This document shows positions 3,143-61,664 of a DNA stretch of 64,000 bases, piece by piece. Origin of the DNA: an uncultured virus (IMG/VR IMGVR_UViG_3300025407_000887). Lineage: Duplodnaviria > Heunggongvirae > Uroviricota > Caudoviricetes. The stretch lies in IMG/VR virus record IMGVR_UViG_3300025407_000887, one strand, 5' to 3'. A program made the translations under genes and the position numbers. The notes below the pieces were generated by a model that did not search any database, had not been told where the DNA came from, and saw nothing but the letters and a program-made list of their open reading frames with translations. The number at the start of each line of letters is the position of its first letter. Position 1 is the first letter of the stretch.

Positions 3143-15971
<12,829 letters not shown>

Positions 15972-15972
<1 letters not shown>

Positions 15973-25778: not shown

Positions 25779-26696
25779 ATGAAAGAACTATGGGTAGAAA
25801 AATATCGTCCTAAAACAATCGATGGATATGTTTTTAGAGATACACATCAAAGAGAACAAATTGAAAGCTGGATTAAACAAGGAAGTATCCCTCATCTGTT
25901 ATTCAGCGGTAATGCAGGAATTGGTAAAACTACCTTAGCTAAGATTCTACTAAATGAGTTAGAAGTAAATGATTTAGATGTATTAGAAATTAATGCAAGC
26001 CGTACCAACTCAGTTGAGGATGTACGTGATAAAATTGTAAGTTTTGTCCAAATGATTCCGTTTGGCGACTTTAAGGTGGTGTTGTTAGATGAAGCAGATT
26101 ATTTGTCTCCAAATGCTCAAGCGGCATTGCGTGGAGTTATGGAAGAGTATCACACTACTGCACGTTTTGTTCTTACTTGTAACTATCCTAATCGTATTAT
26201 TCCTGCCTTACATAGTAGATGTCAAGGATTCCATATTGAAAGGGTGGACATTACAGAGTTTACTGCTCGTGTTGCTACTATCCTAGTAGAAGAAAATGTC
26301 GATTTTGATTTAGATACACTAGATTCTTTTGTCAAAGGAACTTATCCAGATTTGCGTAAATGTATTAATACTGTACAGATGAATAGTATGGAAGGTAAAT
26401 TGCATACACCCGAAAAGGCAGATACAGGGCAAGCTGATTATAAAATTCAAATGGTTGATTTATTTAAAGCAGGAAAGATTAGCGAAGCAAGAAAACTAGT
26501 ATGTAGTCAAGCACGACCAGAAGAGATGGAAGAAATTTACAGATGGTTGTATGACAATGTCGAGATATTCGGCGACGATGCTACACAAGAAAAAGCTATA
26601 CTACGAATAAAACAAGGTTTAGCCGACAACACTCTTGTGAGTGATCCCGAAATAAACCTTGCCGCAACGTTAATTCATTTGAGTCATTTGGTGTAA
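25779..26696 (+). CDS. Clamp loader subunit (T4 gp44 / RFC small subunit-like)
   Basis: LWVEKYRP, GNAGIGKTT Walker A, LLDEADYL Walker B, SRC motif. Confidence 0.93.
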   Translation: MKELWVEKYRPKTIDGYVFRDTHQREQIESWIKQGSIPHLLFSGNAGIGKTTLAKILLNELEVNDLDVLEINASRTNSVEDVRDKIVSFVQMIPFGDFKVVLLDEADYLSPNAQAALRGVMEEYHTTARFVLTCNYPNRIIPALHSRCQGFHIERVDITEFTARVATILVEENVDFDLDTLDSFVKGTYPDLRKCINTVQMNSMEGKLHTPEKADTGQADYKIQMVDLFKAGKISEARKLVCSQARPEEMEEIYRWLYDNVEIFGDDATQEKAILRIKQGLADNTLVSDPEINLAATLIHLSHLV

Positions 26697-26703
26697 TAAT
26701 ACA

Positions 26704-27423
26704 CTAATCTCCATACACAGCTAACACCTCCTTCACTGCGTTATGGCGTTCTATGTCTCTGGCATCGAATTCTACTATATCTAAATGTTTTAGAATTGGA
26801 TGCTCTTGTAATAAATTACAAAAATCCATCAAGCCATTGTCTTTTAAACGATCGGCTTGATTTAAATCTCCTGTCACTACCATTTTACTTCCCTCGCCTA
26901 AACGAGTCAACAGCATTTTCATTTGATTTACTGTAGCATTTTGCATTTCGTCTGCTACTATATATGCGTTTTTGAATGTACGGCCACGCATATAGGCCAA
27001 TGGACTTATCTCAATAACACCTTCCTCTAGCATTTTTGCTATGTCTTTTTGATGATAATAGTCCGCAAATACATCAAATATAGGTCTTGTCCACGGTGCC
27101 ATTTTTTCATTTAATGTACCTGGTAAGAATCCTAGATCTTCATCTACGGACACGGCGGGTCTTGTCACTACGATTTTGTCCACAATCCCTTCTTGCAACA
27201 TCTTAATACCATGCTGAACCGCTAGCATAGTTTTACCTGTACCGGCAGGACCGATAGCAAATACTATACTTTTAGTTTCATCTTGGAGTTTTTGGACGTA
27301 TGTGGCCTGATTAGAGTTACGTGGGTAAAGACTCACTCTCGGCTTTTTCGCGGGAAGATACTGCGGAAAATCTATAATGTTAACTTCTGATGTAAAACGC
27401 TTTTTCACTCGTTGTTTACTCAT
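26704..27423 (-). CDS. phoH: PhoH-like ATPase
   Basis: GPAGTGKT, LGFLPG, YMRGRTF, DEMQN, GDLNQAD. Confidence 0.95.
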   Translation of the reverse strand: MSKQRVKKRFTSEVNIIDFPQYLPAKKPRVSLYPRNSNQATYVQKLQDETKSIVFAIGPAGTGKTMLAVQHGIKMLQEGIVDKIVVTRPAVSVDEDLGFLPGTLNEKMAPWTRPIFDVFADYYHQKDIAKMLEEGVIEISPLAYMRGRTFKNAYIVADEMQNATVNQMKMLLTRLGEGSKMVVTGDLNQADRLKDNGLMDFCNLLQEHPILKHLDIVEFDARDIERHNAVKEVLAVYGD

Positions 27424-27430
27424 TAAGTTG

Positions 27431-27494
27431 CTCCTACTTTACTGTTAAAGTAGGACTTGTAGTGACCGCCTTTGATAACTACAGAGGTCCTACA
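27431..27494 (-). promoter_or_regulatory. Structured 5' leader of phoH with two mutually exclusive hairpins
   Basis: 10-bp stem 27432-27441/27446-27455 covers the SD; alternative stems 27450-27456/27487-27493 and 27458-27463/27478-27483. Confidence 0.6.
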
Positions 27495-27583
27495 CTATTA
27501 TTTAACGTATTCCTAGAAAAGTAAACTAATACGTTATGATTTTGAACCAGCTAAATAAGTATAGAGAATTCTAGGATCAATAC

Positions 27584-28195
27584 ATGCACCACGACATATT
27601 AGATGTTATTAAAAACATACAAGAACTATACGAAAACAATTCTAGCCTTGCGGTTTTGAAGGACTTTGAACGTGTTTTTGAAGAGATGGACGTATACGTC
27701 TATGAAAACTGGATCGATGGTGAATTAGCATACGGCCCTAAAGTGGACCGTCATTGGATTACAGCCGGCTTTATGTGGCCTAAAGACAAGATGCCTAATC
27801 CGACTGCTGGCAAGCGTTTAATGGAATTAGGTTGTAAAGTTACATATCAAAAGAGTCATTTGCTAGAACCACGCAAAATTAAAAGTCCCCAGGACCTACG
27901 TCCAGGAAGTAAAAAAGGTAAACTAGATCGTAAACCTATTTGGATTGTAGAAGTACAGATGCCTAAACATATTGCTTTTGAAATTTATCAAGGCTACATG
28001 TTTAAGATGAAAGGTAAAGATAAAGACCATATGTTAACTAACGATCAAGGTAGTGCGCCAGCACCAGCACCGCAAGCACCAGGTGGTGGAATGCCTCCAC
28101 CAGCACCAGGCGGAGCACCGGCACCAGGAGCCGCACCAGGAGCCGCACCAGGCGGGGTAACTCCAGGCGGAGCACCAGGCGGAGTAGCACAATGA
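27584..28195 (+). CDS. Hypothetical late protein with Pro/Gly/Ala-rich tail
   Basis: CTAAATA at 27551-27557; 203-aa ORF. Confidence 0.7.
   Translation: MHHDILDVIKNIQELYENNSSLAVLKDFERVFEEMDVYVYENWIDGELAYGPKVDRHWITAGFMWPKDKMPNPTAGKRLMELGCKVTYQKSHLLEPRKIKSPQDLRPGSKKGKLDRKPIWIVEVQMPKHIAFEIYQGYMFKMKGKDKDHMLTNDQGSAPAPAPQAPGGGMPPPAPGGAPAPGAAPGAAPGGVTPGGAPGGVAQ
28054..28185 (+). repeat. Coding low-complexity GCACCAGG-type repeats (PGGAPAPG)
   Basis: Many gcacca(g)/gcaccagg copies in a locally GC-rich stretch. Confidence 0.8.
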
Positions 28196-31040: not shown

Positions 31041-31919
31041 ATGACTGATTATTACCAAACATTAGGTGTTAGCGAAACAGCTAGCCCAGAAGAAATTAAA
31101 AAAGCATACCGAAGCTTGGCTAATAAACATCATCCAGACAAGGGTGGAGATCAAGCCAAATTCAAAGATATCAGCGTTGCTTATGATACATTAAGTGATG
31201 CTCAAAAGAAAGCCGAATACGACCACCAACGACAGTTTGGAAACGGACAACAATTCCATTTTCATACAGGCAATCCGTTTGGAGGACAACCTGGGTTCGA
31301 TCCGTTTGGTGGTATATTTGGTCAACAATTTCCGCAAGGTCACCCATTTGGGGATATTTTTGGACACATGCGCCGTGGACAACCTCAGCGTAATAGAGAT
31401 TTAAACATTCAATGTACAATTAGTTTTTTAGATAGTTATACAGGCAAACAACTTGAAGCCAGCTATCAATTACCTAGCGGTAAGAAACAAAACGTAGTTA
31501 TTAGTGTACCAGCAGGCGTTAATAATGGAGACACTATTCGATATCAAGGGCTGGGCGATGACAGTATGCCTGGACCACGCGGTAATCTTAATGTTACAAT
31601 TTTAGTTCAAGCAGAACCCGGTTATGAACGTAGAGGGGATGATATATTCCATGCTGTGGATATTACTCCCATCGAAGCAATGATCGGTTGCAGAAAACAT
31701 GTAAAAAATTTATCAGGCACTGTATTAGATTTAGATATCAGAGCTGGTATAGAACATGGTGCAGAATTTGCTAGTAACGGGCACGGGTTTCCAAATGTAA
31801 ATAATGGATACAAAGGAAGATTTGTTACAGTAATCAAAATTAAACCAACTCCTGTAACCGACTCCGGAATTATTCAACAATTAAAAGATATCGATGCTAA
31901 AATTAATCAAAGAAACTGA
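31041..31919 (+). CDS. DnaJ/CbpA-like co-chaperone (no Zn finger)
   Basis: DYYQTLGV, HPD motif, G/F-rich linker, C-terminal DnaJ domain. Confidence 0.92.
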   Translation: MTDYYQTLGVSETASPEEIKKAYRSLANKHHPDKGGDQAKFKDISVAYDTLSDAQKKAEYDHQRQFGNGQQFHFHTGNPFGGQPGFDPFGGIFGQQFPQGHPFGDIFGHMRRGQPQRNRDLNIQCTISFLDSYTGKQLEASYQLPSGKKQNVVISVPAGVNNGDTIRYQGLGDDSMPGPRGNLNVTILVQAEPGYERRGDDIFHAVDITPIEAMIGCRKHVKNLSGTVLDLDIRAGIEHGAEFASNGHGFPNVNNGYKGRFVTVIKIKPTPVTDSGIIQQLKDIDAKINQRN

Positions 31920-32400
31920 TCCCATATTAAAACAACGTGCTGAAGATTGGGACTTTGGGTTAGATTCTAACGCAGATCAACTTGAAGATGAAATGATTGA
32001 CATAATGATTGCCAACAATGGAATTGGGTTGGCGGCAAACCAAGTTGGCTTACTCAAGCGAGTATTTGTTATTAAGTTAGATAACGGTCGTAGGCTAGGA
32101 ATGTTTAATCCAAGATTAATCAAATCTAGCGAAGAAATACAAATAGCTGAAGAAGGTTGTTTAAGTTTTCCAGATTTATTTCTAGATATTCCCCGTCCTC
32201 AACAAATCGACGTTGCATTTCTTGACAAAAATGCACAAGAGTGTACAATGACATTATCAGGCATTACTGCTAGATGTTTCCTCCATGAATTGGATCATTT
32301 AAACGGTATATGTTTCACTGATAACATTAGTGTATTGAAATTAGCAATGGCTCGTAAACGACAAAACAAGATAAGGAACAGTAATGGTCGAACCAAGTGA
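31894..32400 (+). CDS. def: Peptide deformylase
   Basis: GIGLAANQVG, EGCLSFP, HELDHLNG. Confidence 0.95.
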   Translation: MLKLIKETDPILKQRAEDWDFGLDSNADQLEDEMIDIMIANNGIGLAANQVGLLKRVFVIKLDNGRRLGMFNPRLIKSSEEIQIAEEGCLSFPDLFLDIPRPQQIDVAFLDKNAQECTMTLSGITARCFLHELDHLNGICFTDNISVLKLAMARKRQNKIRNSNGRTK

Positions 32401-34663
32401 TAACCTACAAGCAGTTTTTGAAAAAGCAATTGATACTGCTAAGAAACTACATCACGAATATCTAACAATAGAACATTTATTGTTTGCGATGTTATCCGAT
32501 GAAGGGTTTACTACTACGATAACAGGGTTTGGTAGTAATCCTGATGCCCTTAAAATTAATTTAGAAGATTATTTGAATAATAAATGCAAAGAAATCGTAC
32601 TGAATGAAGTAGTAATTAAACCTAAAAAGACTCAGAGTGTTGAACGTGTACTTAATCGTGCGTTCACTCAGGTATTATTTAATGGGCGTCAAAAAATTGA
32701 ACCAACTGATGTGTTCCTTGCTATGATAGGCGAAAAACGTAGTTGGGCGTATTTTTATATTCATCAAGCTGGTATAGATAAAGATAAATTTGCAGAGTAT
32801 CTTACAAATACTTCCGAAGAAGAATTTGAAGAATCTGGTCCACAAGAAGGTACAAGTAGAGCACTAGCGGCATTTACAACTAATTTAAATGAAGAAGTTA
32901 CTAAGAAAAAGATTGATCCAGTAATTGGTCGTATCGATGAACTAGAAAACATTGCCCTGGCTTTAGGTCGTCGTAGTAAAAATAACGTAATCCTTGTAGG
33001 AGATCCAGGTGTTGGCAAAACTGCTATAGCAGAGGGGCTTGCCTATAATATCGTAAATGGTGCGGTCCCTGAGTTCTTAAAAGAATACAAGGTTTATAGT
33101 TTAGATATTTCAGCTATGCTAGCTGGTAGTAAGTATCGTGGCGACTTTGAAGAACGTTTTAAACAAGTACTCAAAGGCCTAGCAAAGAAAGGCAAGACTG
33201 TGCTGTTTATCGATGAAGCACACATGATTAGCGGTGCTGGAAGTGCTAGCAATAGTGCCAACGATCTTGCCAATATGATGAAACCTGCTCTAAGCAAAGG
33301 CAACATCAAGGTTATAGCATCAACTACGTGGGAAGAATATCGTAAACACTTTGAAAAGGATCGTGCATTAATGCGTCGTTTCCAACGCATTACAGTTGAT
33401 GAACCTACTCAAGAAGTTACACTACAAATTCTTAAAGGTATTAAGAAGTATTATGAACAATTCCATAATACAAAGATCAAAGACGATGCACTTAATGCCG
33501 CTATTAAACTGTCGGTTAAATATCAAACAGACAAAAAATTACCAGATAAGGCAATCGATTTGATTGACTTGGCATGTAGTCGTTTTAATTTAAAATTAGT
33601 TGAAGATCGTATTATTTCTGAACGCGAAATTCAATTTGAATTAAGTAAATTGGTTAATATGCCTGAAGAAAAGATTATGGAAACAGAGTCTAGCAATATT
33701 GCTAGTTTGCAAACTAATCTTGAAAAAGAAGTGTATGGACAAGACATGGCTCTTACAGAAATTGTTGACAAGATTATTGTTGCACAAGCTGGTCTTAAGA
33801 CAGAAAACAAACCAGTTGGTAGCTTTGTATTCATGGGTCCTACAGGAACAGGTAAAACTGAAACTGCTAAATCGCTTGCTAAACACTTGGGTGTTAAACT
33901 ATTGCGTTTTGATATGAGTGAATATCAAGAGAAACACAGTATTAGTAAGTTAATTGGTAGCCCACCAGGATATGTTGGCTTTGAAGAAGATGCTGGACAG
34001 TTGATTACACAAATTCAAGAAGCACCTAACGCTGTTCTGTTGCTAGACGAAGTTGAAAAGGCTCATCCAGATGTGATGACTGTACTGTTGCAACTAATGG
34101 ACAATGGCTTTATTACCGGATCTAATGGTAAGAAAGCAGATTGCCGTAACATTATCCTTATTCTTACTACTAATGCTGGCGCAAATTCTGCAGAAAAGAA
34201 CGCAATTGGGTTTGGTAAACAAGAAAAAGACTATAGTGATGCAGACTTGAAGAAGTTCCTGACTCCAGAGTTCCGTAATCGTTTGGACGGTGTTGTTACA
34301 TTCAATAAACTCGGTAAAGATACTATGGTTAAGATTGTTAACAAGTTTATTGACGAACTTAAAGAACAGGTTAAAGATAAAGCAGTACGTATTAAAATCA
34401 ACAAAGAAGCAATTGAATGGTTGATTACTAAAGGATTTGATCCTAAGATGGGTGCTCGTCCAGTACAACGAGTAATCGATAAAGAGATCAAACGCAATCT
34501 TGCTAAGATGATGTTGTTTGGAGAATTGAAGAATGGTGGCTGGGCTACTATTACACTCGATAATGATCAATTAGCGATTGTTGCTAAAGCAAAAGAATCT
34601 AAAGTACCCTTGCTAACTGTAGACTCTACTACTCCTTTAGTTGAAATACCAGATGCTGTATAA
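32384..34663 (+). CDS. clpA: ATP-dependent Clp protease ATPase subunit ClpA
   Basis: Two AAA+ modules (GDPGVGKT, GPTGTGKT), IGF ClpP-binding loop, no ClpB middle domain. Confidence 0.92.
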   Translation: MVEPSDNLQAVFEKAIDTAKKLHHEYLTIEHLLFAMLSDEGFTTTITGFGSNPDALKINLEDYLNNKCKEIVLNEVVIKPKKTQSVERVLNRAFTQVLFNGRQKIEPTDVFLAMIGEKRSWAYFYIHQAGIDKDKFAEYLTNTSEEEFEESGPQEGTSRALAAFTTNLNEEVTKKKIDPVIGRIDELENIALALGRRSKNNVILVGDPGVGKTAIAEGLAYNIVNGAVPEFLKEYKVYSLDISAMLAGSKYRGDFEERFKQVLKGLAKKGKTVLFIDEAHMISGAGSASNSANDLANMMKPALSKGNIKVIASTTWEEYRKHFEKDRALMRRFQRITVDEPTQEVTLQILKGIKKYYEQFHNTKIKDDALNAAIKLSVKYQTDKKLPDKAIDLIDLACSRFNLKLVEDRIISEREIQFELSKLVNMPEEKIMETESSNIASLQTNLEKEVYGQDMALTEIVDKIIVAQAGLKTENKPVGSFVFMGPTGTGKTETAKSLAKHLGVKLLRFDMSEYQEKHSISKLIGSPPGYVGFEEDAGQLITQIQEAPNAVLLLDEVEKAHPDVMTVLLQLMDNGFITGSNGKKADCRNIILILTTNAGANSAEKNAIGFGKQEKDYSDADLKKFLTPEFRNRLDGVVTFNKLGKDTMVKIVNKFIDELKEQVKDKAVRIKINKEAIEWLITKGFDPKMGARPVQRVIDKEIKRNLAKMMLFGELKNGGWATITLDNDQLAIVAKAKESKVPLLTVDSTTPLVEIPDAV

Positions 34664-59485: not shown

Positions 59486-60256
59486 ATGACTGAATCCAGA
59501 ATATACGAACACGAAAACATTCTTGCTGGCGCAGAACAGCAAGGCGATGATGACAAAAATTATAAAGAATGTAATCTAGCAGATGTTATCCGCTTTCAAA
59601 TGAAACGACGAGGCAAACGTTTTTGGGCCGGTGACAACATTAGCGAGTTTGTCGACGAAGAACAAAAAGAAGTCTTAATCGAAGAAGCTACTAAGGCTTT
59701 TGAAAAAGTATTAGATTGTTTGCTTATTGATCGTGAAAATGATCCTAATAGCAAAGGTACAGCCAAGCGATTAGCTAAAATGTATTTCAACGAAATAATG
59801 AGTGGCAGATATGAACCAGCACCAGACGCAACAGCATTTCCCAACGACTCGGTGGATCGATACGAAGGTATGTTGGTGGTACGTAGTGAGCTCCGCTCTA
59901 TGTGCAGTCATCATCATCAGCCCGTTACTGGTGTCGCTTACATTGGCATCATCGCCGCACAAAAACTTATTGGTTTGTCTAAGTACACTCGTATTGCTCA
60001 GTGGTGTGCTCGTCGCGGGACTCTCCAGGAAGAGTTGTGTAACGATATTGCTAGGGAAATCCAAAAAGCTACAGGAGCCATGGATTTAGGTGTGTATATT
60101 CAAGCTACACATGGTTGCTGTGAGAATCGCGGTATTATGGCCAAGAGTAGTTTAACACAGACCACAGTACTCAAAGGTGCGTTTACTAATGATGCTGGCA
60201 CAAAGAAAGAATTCTTTGACAATATTAAAATGCAACAGGAGTATGCTTCTAAATGA
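59486..60256 (+). CDS. folE: GTP cyclohydrolase I
   Basis: SMCSHHHQP, IGLSKYTRI, LQEEL, HGCCENRG. Confidence 0.95.
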   Translation: MTESRIYEHENILAGAEQQGDDDKNYKECNLADVIRFQMKRRGKRFWAGDNISEFVDEEQKEVLIEEATKAFEKVLDCLLIDRENDPNSKGTAKRLAKMYFNEIMSGRYEPAPDATAFPNDSVDRYEGMLVVRSELRSMCSHHHQPVTGVAYIGIIAAQKLIGLSKYTRIAQWCARRGTLQEELCNDIAREIQKATGAMDLGVYIQATHGCCENRGIMAKSSLTQTTVLKGAFTNDAGTKKEFFDNIKMQQEYASK

Positions 60257-60621
60257 CTGACCTAAGAATACAAGTACCAGCTGAAGGTATTATGCAAACT
60301 AACGACTGGGGTAAGAGTAAAGTCTACCGAGTTGCCTGTGAGTGTGGTGCTTCTGAGCACGATCATCATGTATGGGTAGAAGCTGACGATCATGGCGAAG
60401 TCAGTGTTACTGTTTATACAACTGTAAGAAGCAATTGGTGGAGCAAGGATCGCTGGCATCATATTTGGACATTGTTAACTAAAGGCTATATCGATACAGA
60501 GTCTACCCTAGTTATGCGTAAACAACAAGCATTTAACTATGCTCATACACTATTAAGTGCTGTTGAAGATGTTGAAAAATTCAAAGAGGAACGAGATGCA
60601 GAACGCCAAACAAATAACTGA
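60253..60621 (+). CDS. Hypothetical protein
   Basis: CECG...HDHH possible metal site; ATGA overlap. Confidence 0.6.
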   Translation: MTDLRIQVPAEGIMQTNDWGKSKVYRVACECGASEHDHHVWVEADDHGEVSVTVYTTVRSNWWSKDRWHHIWTLLTKGYIDTESTLVMRKQQAFNYAHTLLSAVEDVEKFKEERDAERQTNN

Positions 60622-60826
60622 TGAATTAATTCACCGTATGAAAACTACAGACCTAAATAAGTTTGAGATCAAACGTGAAGTCGGTGACAATTGGATTCCT
60701 AATGGAACTGTTCCTTTTGATATTAGTGCTAGTAAAGGTATCGCTACATTTACAGTATGGGCAGAAAGTATACAAGATGCAGAAGATCAAGTAAGTCAAT
60801 ATTTAGAGAAAGATGAAGATGAGTAA
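60596..60826 (+). CDS. Hypothetical protein
   Basis: GAGGA SD before ATG 60596. Confidence 0.55.
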   Translation: MQNAKQITDELIHRMKTTDLNKFEIKREVGDNWIPNGTVPFDISASKGIATFTVWAESIQDAEDQVSQYLEKDEDE

Positions 60827-61664
60827 AATTAAAATTGCAGAATTATTTTATAGTGTACAGGGCGAGGGTAGATATATGGGAGTACCTAGCGTGTTCCTTA
60901 GAACTTTTGGCTGCAATTTTTCTTGTAAGGGCTTCGGTATGCCACGTGGTGAGTTAAGTACGGAAGCAGAAGATATTTCAGAAGTAGTACATTTATATAA
61001 CAAGTATGAAGAACTTCCGTTAGTTTCTACTGGTTGCGATAGTTATGCTAGCTGGCATCCTAGTTTTAAAGATCTAAGTCCAATGCTTACTAGTGAAGCT
61101 ATCACAGATCGTATTATGGAAATTATTCCACATGGTGAATGGCACGACGAGCATTTAGTTATTACAGGCGGTGAACCTTTACTAGGTTGGCAACGTGCTT
61201 ATCCAGACTTATTGAACAATCCTAAAATGAAGGCATTAAAAGAGATCACGTTTGAAACAAACGGTACTCAGAAACTTACGCCAGAGTTTAAAGGATACTT
61301 GACTAAATGGAATAGTGAAGTAGGTAAAGAACTTACATTCAGTGTAAGTGCTAAACTTCCGGCTAGTGGTGAAAAGTGGGAGGAAGCTATTCTCCCAGAA
61401 GTTGTTTGTGAATATGAACAAGTTGGAACAACGTATTTGAAATTTGTAGTAGCAACAGAAGAGGATGTTAAAGATGCAGAACGAGCAGTTAAACAATTTA
61501 GAGAAGCGGGTTTTAAAGGTCACGTATATCTTATGCCTGTCGGTGGTGTTGAGTCTGTTTATAATCTCAATGCTAAAGCCATTGCCCTTGCCGCAATGAA
61601 GCGTGGCTGGCGTTATAGCGATAGATTGCAAGTTCCATTATTTAAAAACGAATGGGGTACCTAA
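60819..61664 (+). CDS. queE: 7-carboxy-7-deazaguanine synthase (radical SAM)
   Basis: ELFYSVQGEG, FLRTFGCNFSC...GCDS (insert within the Cys motif), ITGGEPLL, FETNGT. Confidence 0.9.
   Translation: MSKIKIAELFYSVQGEGRYMGVPSVFLRTFGCNFSCKGFGMPRGELSTEAEDISEVVHLYNKYEELPLVSTGCDSYASWHPSFKDLSPMLTSEAITDRIMEIIPHGEWHDEHLVITGGEPLLGWQRAYPDLLNNPKMKALKEITFETNGTQKLTPEFKGYLTKWNSEVGKELTFSVSAKLPASGEKWEEAILPEVVCEYEQVGTTYLKFVVATEEDVKDAERAVKQFREAGFKGHVYLMPVGGVESVYNLNAKAIALAAMKRGWRYSDRLQVPLFKNEWGT

Follow-up and report, generated by a model that had tools for sequence, protein, structure and literature searches.

phoH is among the commonest of the phage 'auxiliary' genes and a widely used marker gene, and we know of no answer to the question of what it does during infection. 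The locus considered here raises a narrower question: how is synthesis of its product controlled? A 64,000-nucleotide stretch of an uncultured Caudoviricetes record (IMG/VR IMGVR_UViG_3300025407_000887), which we call the window, carries on its minus strand a phoH gene preceded by a 70-nt untranslated leader in which one strand can pair with either of two partners. A preliminary description, made from the letters of the window, had proposed that this strand alternates between a hairpin that leaves the Shine-Dalgarno (SD) sequence free and one that buries it, under the control of a ligand, a protein or the transcription start site. Both pairings exist, they exclude each other, and each is conserved among relatives with compensatory changes of its own. 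Our preferred reading, to which we give about an even chance, is that the leader is a self-contained translational gate on PhoH synthesis, its 5′ end taking the part of the anti-sequestor.

Competing pairings in the phoH leader

The open reading frame (ORF) at 26704..27423 (minus strand; AUG at 27423-27421) encodes a 239-aa PhoH-like ATPase, assigned to that family by its match to the PHROG 170 profile (E 1.8e-76). The text of its leader is exactly as the preliminary description spelled it out, with TAAATA box, leader words and SD correct letter for letter. All coordinates that follow in the leader are on the minus strand. Segment 1, GUAGGAC (27493-27487), is the 5′ strand of a helix that we call P1 and the proposed anti-sequestor; CUC connects it to segment 2, UGUAGU (27483-27478), the 5′ strand of a second helix, P2. 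A 14-nt loop (27477-27464) forms the apical part of P2, where AUC (27476-27474) pairs with GGU (27467-27465), and the GGUC at 27467-27464 is also the lower half of a decoy for segment 1. The 3′ strand of P2 is segment 3, ACUACA (27463-27458), whose CUAC doubles as the decoy partner of the 5′ GUAG. A single A joins it to segment 4, GUCCUAC-UUUA (27456-27446), the shared strand, which can serve as the 3′ strand of P1 or as the 5′ strand of the SD hairpin. The 3′ strand of that hairpin is segment 5, UAAAGUAGGAG (UAAA-GUAGGAG; 27441-27431), which includes the SD, AGGAG (27435-27431).

In the open fold, segments 1 and 4 form P1 and segments 2 and 3 form P2 (1:4 + 2:3), giving one long 5′-terminal hairpin with the SD free. 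In the closed fold, UCCUACUUUA (27455-27446) pairs with UAAAGUAGGA (27441-27432) in a perfect 10-bp helix (4:5) with ACAG in between, and a third pairing (1:3) parks the 5′ end on segment 3. This third pairing, of the 5′ GUAGGACC with GGUC-A-CUAC (27467-27459), was absent from the preliminary description, and because it exists, the minimum-energy fold consists of 1:3 plus 4:5, two coexisting hairpins with the SD closed. By nearest-neighbor estimates at 37°C, which apply to all energies given here, the closed fold (B) has −24.2 kcal/mol, the open fold (A) −19.9 kcal/mol, and a fold with 2:3 and 4:5 formed and the 5′ end free (C) −20.4 kcal/mol; the SD hairpin alone accounts for −11.5 kcal/mol and P1 plus P2 alone for −14.8 kcal/mol. 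The switch picture first put forward was thus right about the two exclusive folds, but it overlooked 1:3, and its 'SD-free' fold lies 4.3 kcal/mol above the minimum. The window leader as a whole is unusually stable (minimum free energy −23.9 kcal/mol, z = −3.39), with only 1 of 200 dinucleotide shuffles equally so. Perfect 10-bp hairpins with loops of 3-12 nt are themselves not rare, occurring at 4 sites in the window versus 0-3 (mean 0.9) in 10 Markov-random copies; it is placement over the SD plus conservation, not the 10-bp hairpin itself, that sets this one above chance.

The predicted best fold changes as the RNA grows: 1:3 forms at 36-40 nt, the open fold takes over between 42 and 60 nt, and from 62 nt onward the closed fold is best. 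Passage between A and C, in which strand 4 just swaps partner, has an estimated barrier of ~5 kcal/mol, and passage from A or C to B or back one of 11-15 kcal/mol. Like the fourU and ROSE thermometers, the leader holds its SD in a helix with U-rich and A-rich flanks; unlike them, it shows no change of SD accessibility with temperature in the model. From 45 down to 5°C, the closed fold keeps a lead of 3.5-7.3 kcal/mol and computed SD accessibility stays flat (0.20 at 5°C, 0.23 at 45°C), which rules out an RNA thermometer by calculation. Direct reading of the leader found no start codon (AUG, GUG or UUG) between +1 and the phoH AUG, so attenuation mediated by a ribosome on a leader peptide is likewise ruled out.

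Conservation and energetics of the folds among relatives

Relatives were collected with four PhoH queries, with 80 loci kept per search from the 432, 585, 507 and 595 stretches reported. A leader was present at 78 of the 80 loci kept for the window PhoH, 76 of 80 for the PhoH of locus L109 (L numbers denote individual loci), 77 of 80 for that of L215 (searched in metagenomes) and 78 of 80 for that of L366. The leader-less loci of the first three queries (10) are all contig-end cuts, and those of the fourth, L386 and L441, carry shorter variants that still have a hairpin at the start. A scan for the P2 motif matched at least 119 contigs, once each and always preceding phoH, and a covariance model gave one 78-89-bit match in the window's record and in each of four relatives of 223-356 kb, all remaining matches in these five records having E ≥ 0.076. 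The leader is single copy per genome, which rules out a repeated or mobile element. The word GTAGGAC occurs 10 times in the window versus 4.0 expected and is not clearly enriched (2 of 100 shuffles reach 10).

Selection on the leader was gauged from the identities of 31 phoH coding sequences and their leaders (465 pairs). Leader words 1-3, the 5′ domain, are 0.947 identical, compared with 0.611 for codon position 3, 0.891 for codon positions 1 and 2, and 0.770 for the 60 nt upstream of the promoter word. The leader RNA is kept more strictly than the phoH codons, indicating selection at the RNA level. Of 207 loci, 3 truncated ones were left out, and the remaining 204 supplied 96 unique leaders for a MAFFT alignment. 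In it, columns paired only in the open fold have a mean conservation of 0.958, columns paired only in the SD hairpin 0.905, and columns that never pair 0.677. The G and U just before AGGAG, outside the SD core, are kept in 96 and 95 of the 96 leaders, respectively, and segment 2 does not vary at all, even though the closed fold leaves it in a loop; the loop of the SD hairpin varies from 4 to ~11 nt. Open-fold pairs form in 98.3% of 1270 alignment cells, versus 18-54% with slid partners, and closed-fold pairs in 97.8% of 1621 cells with 2 covarying pairs, both in 4:5. The RNAalifold consensus combines P2 with the SD hairpin and pairs columns 19-21 with 29-31 in apical P2, where the variants ACU/GGU (L298/L333) and UAC/GUA (L339/L361) occur.

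A second, model-fitted alignment drew on 98 sources: the window and 97 loci, consisting of 94 leaders picked for diversity from 138 unique ones and three loci of a sister clade described below. It matched 95 rows, one of which is the antisense of the palindromic hairpin and is to be discounted; L363 and L366-L368 were not matched. On this alignment, which leans to the open fold, that fold has 4 covarying pairs (1 of 500 shuffles has as many), and P1 pairs form in 99.4% of cells with 3 pairs changed on both sides. For the SD hairpin, which played no part in the fitting, 3 pairs covary in 13 cells, a level reached by 0 of 500 shuffles, and its pairs are kept in 97.1%. For the 1:3 pairing, neither alignment shows a double-sided change, and the pairing fails in L215 and at 5+5 cells.

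Individual loci make the compensation concrete. In P1, an A-U pair has become G-C in L028/L156/L332 (GUAGGGC with GCCCUAC or GCCUUAC) and a G-C pair has become A-U in L076 (GUAGAAC with GUUCUAC). L215 has exchanged U-A for C-G in P1 and A-U for G-C in P2 (ACAGGAC/GUCCUGA, UAUGGU/ACCACA), at the cost of 3 of the 4 upper 1:3 pairs. P2 is re-registered in L339/L361, and nine 'type-B' leaders have two extra P1/P2 pairs, G-C and A-U. The commonest variation, C/U or A/G in word 4, keeps a wobble with both partners and therefore cannot tell the folds apart. The apical loop, UUAUC..GGCGGUC, is invariant in the close clade only; it is unrelated in L215, L218, L339/L361, L360 and all 51 unique leaders of the sister clade. 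The idea that the leader depends on a ligand found no backing in this loop, which is not conserved across clades and offers no conserved pocket. The preliminary description fared better on structure: the leader fold is kept at related phoH loci, and double-sided changes were found for the 1:4, 2:3 and 4:5 helices alike.

In the sister clade, the PhoH is ~70% identical to the L215 query, and the promoter geometry and first word (GUAGGR) are the same, whereas the interior of the leader is different throughout. The minimum-energy fold of each of the 51 unique leaders, folded alone, nevertheless opens with a P1-P2 hairpin at nucleotide 1. These hairpins use 31 distinct P2 strands among 48, have P1 arms 14-45 nt apart, and vary in P1 pair type (position 4: GC 36, GU 8, AU 6; position 6: GC 34, AU 7, GU 7, CG 1). 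Since P1-P2 is kept with unrelated stems in 51 of 51, the 5′-terminal two-part hairpin is a real and old RNA structure. A YCUAC word, a possible parking site for the 5′ end, lies within P2 in 33 of 47 sister-clade leaders versus 13.5 expected from shuffles; as the sequences are related, this excess is suggestive only.

We then asked what the 5′ end does for the SD. The net cost of freeing GGAG, with refolding allowed, was computed for 138 window-clade and 51 sister-clade leaders. It is 2.9 and 2.7 kcal/mol, respectively, for the full leader, 6.6 and 4.6 kcal/mol when nucleotides 1-7 are blocked, and 3.0 and 3.5 kcal/mol when the upstream part is shuffled. Blocking nucleotides 1-7 adds at least 2 kcal/mol in 108 of the 138 window-clade leaders. 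In these calculations, the 5′ word almost exactly offsets the strong SD hairpin. Over the 96 aligned leaders, the open fold lies 1.6 ± 2.1 kcal/mol above the closed one (range −5.6 to +5.3) and is the lower of the two in 20; the row of L071 is misaligned in this set and its values are unreliable.

The two helices that exclude each other, 1:4 and 4:5, are both under selection, which is hard to explain unless both folds are used; we infer that both probably form in the cell and affect translation. Exclusive helices that share a strand with P1 are present, as in an expression platform, and by its sequence the architecture would be that of a translational ON/OFF platform.

No Rfam family matches it. 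A search of Rfam 15 with window positions 27000-28000 (E up to 10) and eight representative loci (E up to 1) found nothing on the leader, so the family check suggested at the outset came back empty. In the literature on phoH with riboswitch and phage, we found no phoH leader described; an excerpt of PMC9004378 treats a glutamine riboswitch on ssrA. The leader is a putative, uncatalogued structured RNA family specific to phoH. In L215:740-911, just past the phoH stop, there are weak, sub-threshold Rfam matches (RsmZ/PrrB, sraA) that probably reflect a terminator-like hairpin.

Promoter, transcript start and genomic setting

The argument for a role of the 5′ end turns on where the phoH RNA begins. 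A T4-late-like element, TAAATA, lies at 27504-27499 on the minus strand (TTAAATA in the window, GTAAATA or ATAAATA in relatives) and is the same in 52 of 52 unique leaders. Across 191 loci, the word always reads TAA[AG]TA; a spacer of 4-5 nt, invariably ending in T at −1, separates it from the G of GUAGGAC. Because this TAAATA-N4/5-T|G geometry is fixed in all relatives, we place the putative start (+1) at G27493 on the minus strand, so that the RNA would begin with segment 1. The phoH genes of phages PA5oct, Phosso and Atu_ph07 have (T)ATAAATA-N5-G, the same geometry. If the RNA starts at G27493, its first helix lies within 0-2 nt of the 5′ end.

The wider record is consistent with this assignment. 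Every one of the 19 copies of ATAAATA on the two strands of the 120-kb record has a gene start within 60 nt downstream, the background rate being 3.6%; the corresponding figures are 6 of 29 for CTAAATA, 4 of 19 for GTAAATA and 3 of 40 for TTAAATA. A TATAAATA-like word is thus enriched just upstream of genes, and ATAAATA looks like the late-promoter word of this phage; T4-type late promoters are given as TATAAATA, read by gp55, in an excerpt of PMC3014915. Examples of ATAAATA lie at window positions 1076, 1651, 1972 and 3119 (G000:C1:43641, 44216, 44537 and 45684 in the full record), and several of the genes that they precede have their ATG at, or a few bases past, the predicted +1, giving very short or no leaders. 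No sigma-factor PHROG was found among the 54 + 75 = 129 proteins of the ~33%-complete record.

Other promoter-like words surround the start. A −35-like hexamer, TTTACT (27520..27525, minus strand), stands 17 nt before AATAAT (27502-27497) with 9 of 12 consensus matches; a sigma-70-type start from this pair, 2-3 nt further in, is possible but weak, given that a consensus scan found 6 sites in the region versus 5.4 expected from shuffles. On the plus strand, a 10-of-12 sigma-70-like match, TTGATA-18-TATTAT (27472-27501), lies inside the leader, its −10 overlapping the minus-strand AATAAT shifted by one base. The divergent gene that starts at 27584 has a TAAATA of its own (27552..27557, plus strand; CTAAATA at 27551-27557) with N5-T|A geometry, whose reverse complement is kept as ...TATTTAGCTGG in relatives. 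The PA5oct paper, as excerpted, reports sigma-70-type promoters alone (PMC7318152).

The source is a 120,433-base virus record judged ~33% complete, and a record of this length at that completeness implies a jumbo phage. Among the 66 ORFs of the window, phoH is the sole long one on the minus strand. It is sandwiched between plus-strand genes, a clamp-loader gene that ends at 26696 on one side and virion, endolysin, spanin and holin genes (from 27584) on the other, and the 160-bp spacer at 27424-27583 therefore has to hold two divergent promoters plus the phoH leader. phoH and the clamp-loader gene converge with their stop codons 7 bases apart (26696-26704). A scan for terminator-like sites found none between these stop codons, and for this reason the two transcripts probably overlap as antisense pairs. 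The sole terminator-like site in the 1.6-kb region is on the minus strand at 27897-27883, inside the plus-strand virion gene and upstream of the phoH promoter.

PhoH matched 3524 phage records in a tblastn search, the closest named relatives being the PA5oct group (54.4% identity to the window PhoH). PA5oct, Phosso and Atu_ph07 (~50% PhoH identity) are without the leader or a significant fold (z −1.5, +0.3 and −1.2); the phoH of PA5oct has a small 8-bp hairpin at its predicted +1. In PA5oct (L369, MK797984.1 190292-191736), phoH is again a lone gene, inverted relative to both neighbors and adjoining a structural-protein gene. From this comparison, the gene order and promoter type seem to be older than the window-type leader.

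Elsewhere, the record contains several features of separate interest. A single 4167-aa ORF occupies window positions 3469-15972 (plus strand), with a PHROG match, of function not known, to its last ~125 residues alone. Genes for GTP cyclohydrolase and for QueE-like and QueD-like proteins (window 59486-61661, plus strand, and G000:C1:40821-41345) suggest a 7-deazaguanine pathway of the queuosine-precursor type, possibly for DNA modification. A peptide deformylase gene is followed by one for a 759-aa Lon-like ATP-dependent protease (31894-34660, plus strand). Outside the window, G000:C1:2249-21900 holds a cluster, on both strands, of at least seven radical-SAM-domain and two taurine-dioxygenase-like proteins.

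A proposed translational gate and its rivals

How might the gate work? In our preferred reading, the closed fold would be the resting state, and a ribosome could still open it: the freed strand 4 would re-pair at once with the 5′ end, which would lower the computed price of freeing the SD from ~11.5 to ~4 kcal/mol. Because opening would be subsidized by the 5′ end, translation should be modest and conditional on that end. PhoH synthesis would be held low and would depend on an intact, correctly started 5′ end, and an RNA without usable first 7 nt would be locked shut.

Phage T4 offers a close parallel. The leaders of its gene e (lysozyme) and of I-TevI contain hairpins that sequester the ribosome-binding site (RBS), with an effect set by the transcript start, according to an excerpt of PMC3014915. 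The phoH leader resembles them in being part of a phage mRNA with a T4-type (TATAAATA-like) late promoter directly at a structured leader, in having an RBS-burying hairpin (here 10 bp, −11.5 kcal/mol), and in that the 5′ end of the RNA would decide whether the site opens, as computed here from the putative start. In the T4 leaders, the 5′ strand of the inhibitory hairpin itself contains the late promoter, and late RNAs are without the inhibitor. The phoH promoter is instead upstream of all strands, which all lie within the predicted transcript, and TAAATA precedes the first strand of the SD hairpin by ~38-43 nt (27499 to 27455); there is no promoter in the stem. The 5′-terminal word of phoH would be an anti-sequestor rather than the sequestor, and phoH stands alone on the minus strand beside a divergent neighbor, so that read-through early transcripts are not evident from the layout.

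The order and speed of RNA folding control translation in the MS2 maturation-gene leader and in hok mRNA, and the shift in predicted best fold as the phoH leader grows recalls these cases. Unlike in them, the open-fold window spans only ~20 nt of synthesis and the computed barrier to leaving the first hairpin is ~10 kcal/mol, and for these reasons we consider a kinetic window for translation doubtful.

Several observations weigh against the gate. In 46 of the 51 sister-clade leaders, UCC words of the linker pair with the SD and do not compete with P1. Linker UCC/UCUC words mask the SD, in a manner compatible with P1, in the L109/L213-L218 lineage and the sister clade alike. P1 and an SD mask thus coexist in the sister clade, and mutual exclusion is not universal. 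Double-sided changes are few and the sequences closely related: on the MAFFT alignment, the open fold has just 2 double-sided pairs, and 19 of 500 shuffles reach 2. L060 carries uncompensated changes in both helices (words 1 and 5), and in L051/L132 a C at a single position disrupts both helices. The energies are all nearest-neighbor estimates, and an opening cost of 2.9 kcal/mol versus 3.0 after shuffling may mean that the design cancels itself and yields no repression. The folding model, finally, sends the nascent RNA straight into the closed fold, with a barrier of 11-15 kcal/mol back to the open one.

Some of these points favor a static structure, an explanation that we regard as a tentative possibility: a 5′-terminal hairpin shields the late mRNA from 5′-end-dependent decay, the SD hairpin merely sets a low level of translation, and the option to re-pair is a by-product of the likeness between the 5′ word and the SD flank. 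Stem-loops at the 5′ terminus, such as that of the ompA leader, stabilize bacterial and phage mRNAs, and the phoH leaders of both clades share with them a helix at the putative first nucleotide. This hairpin is the feature common to both clades, down to 51 of 51 sister-clade leaders, where it coexists with the SD mask; the 5′ end is paired in both the closed and the open window folds; and the PA5oct phoH likewise has its 8-bp hairpin at the predicted +1. We know of no ompA-type stabilizer that shares a strand with an SD hairpin, however, and a static structure does not explain why, in the window's clade, the exclusive helices 1:4 and 4:5 each have their own compensatory changes and conserved columns, or why segment 2 is invariant despite being a loop in the closed fold. 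It also requires the 1:3 pairing, for which no double-sided change was seen and which fails in L215 and at the 5+5 cells noted above. A true sensor is, in our view, a possibility of about the same weight. Here, a phage or host protein, a small RNA or a small molecule would bind the P2 hairpin at its UUAUC...GGCGGUC top and stabilize P1-P2, so that strand 4 leaves the SD and translation is turned on; the protein could be PhoH itself, a predicted RNA-dependent ATPase, in feedback on its own mRNA. The closed fold is favored both thermodynamically and along the folding path, so that some input would be needed to open it, and within the window's clade the P2 top is near-invariant, its loop bases GGC being unpaired in the open, decoy and SD-hairpin helices scored. 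The three-state layout, moreover, resembles the add adenine riboswitch of Vibrio vulnificus as presented in an excerpt of PMC5605240: the 3′ strand of P1 is shared with the SD-masking helix, and in a second, 'apo' fold, close in energy, the 5′ strand of P1 pairs elsewhere. The phoH leader differs from that riboswitch in being a simple hairpin with no three-way junction, no Rfam match and no ligand suggested by its sequence, and neither a curated-family match nor a conserved unpaired core, the marks of a small-molecule riboswitch, was found. With the P2 top replaced in L215, L218, L339/L361, L360 and all 51 sister-clade leaders, there is no conserved pocket, and a scan of the 129 proteins against PHROGs gave no candidate RNA-binding regulator, in a record ~33% complete.

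Two further explanations carry less weight. If phoH were served by two start sites, the TAAATA start at G27493 would give a full segment 1 and an openable leader, whereas a sigma-70-type start from TTTACT-17-AATAAT, 2-3 nt further in, would truncate segment 1 and leave the leader locked, and phoH would be translated from one temporal class of transcripts alone, like T4 gene e. The region has both pairs of hexamers, and TTTAY is kept upstream to a moderate degree. With nucleotides 1-7 blocked, freeing the SD costs more than twice as much, and T4, where RBS hairpins are relieved by way of late promoters in the excerpt of PMC3014915, provides a precedent. We nonetheless hold such a start-site gate to be very improbable, as AATAAT varies among relatives, being replaced by TAAATACTAT, TAAATATCTTT or TAAATAAAAAT in type-B and other leaders, and promoter sites are no more frequent than in shuffles. 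Least probable of all is that the repeats, which are perfect palindromes in DNA, form an operator for a dimeric DNA-binding protein or, with the plus-strand sigma-70-like match inside the leader, part of a bidirectional promoter. The spacing of the arms varies (4-11 nt in the SD-hairpin loop, 14-45 nt between sister-clade P1 arms), unlike that of a fixed operator; G-U wobble substitutions, sensible in RNA alone, are the commonest; the plus-strand −35 is not conserved (TTGATA, TCGATA, CCGATA); and the plus-strand gene has its own TAAATA. We rejected this explanation on the variable arm spacing, the G-U changes and that TAAATA.

The translational gate remains the reading that we prefer. It would set the phoH leader apart from the classical T4 late-promoter hairpins, as the 5′ end of the mRNA would itself act as the anti-sequestor. 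The leader is small (~70 nt), self-contained and common to two large clades of uncultured jumbo phages. Were the sensor reading true instead, the leader would rank as the first cis-regulatory RNA linked to phoH, and the signal that opens it would hint at the role of PhoH in infection. That the leader is kept more strictly than the phoH codons implies that it makes a difference to the phage how much PhoH is made, or when.

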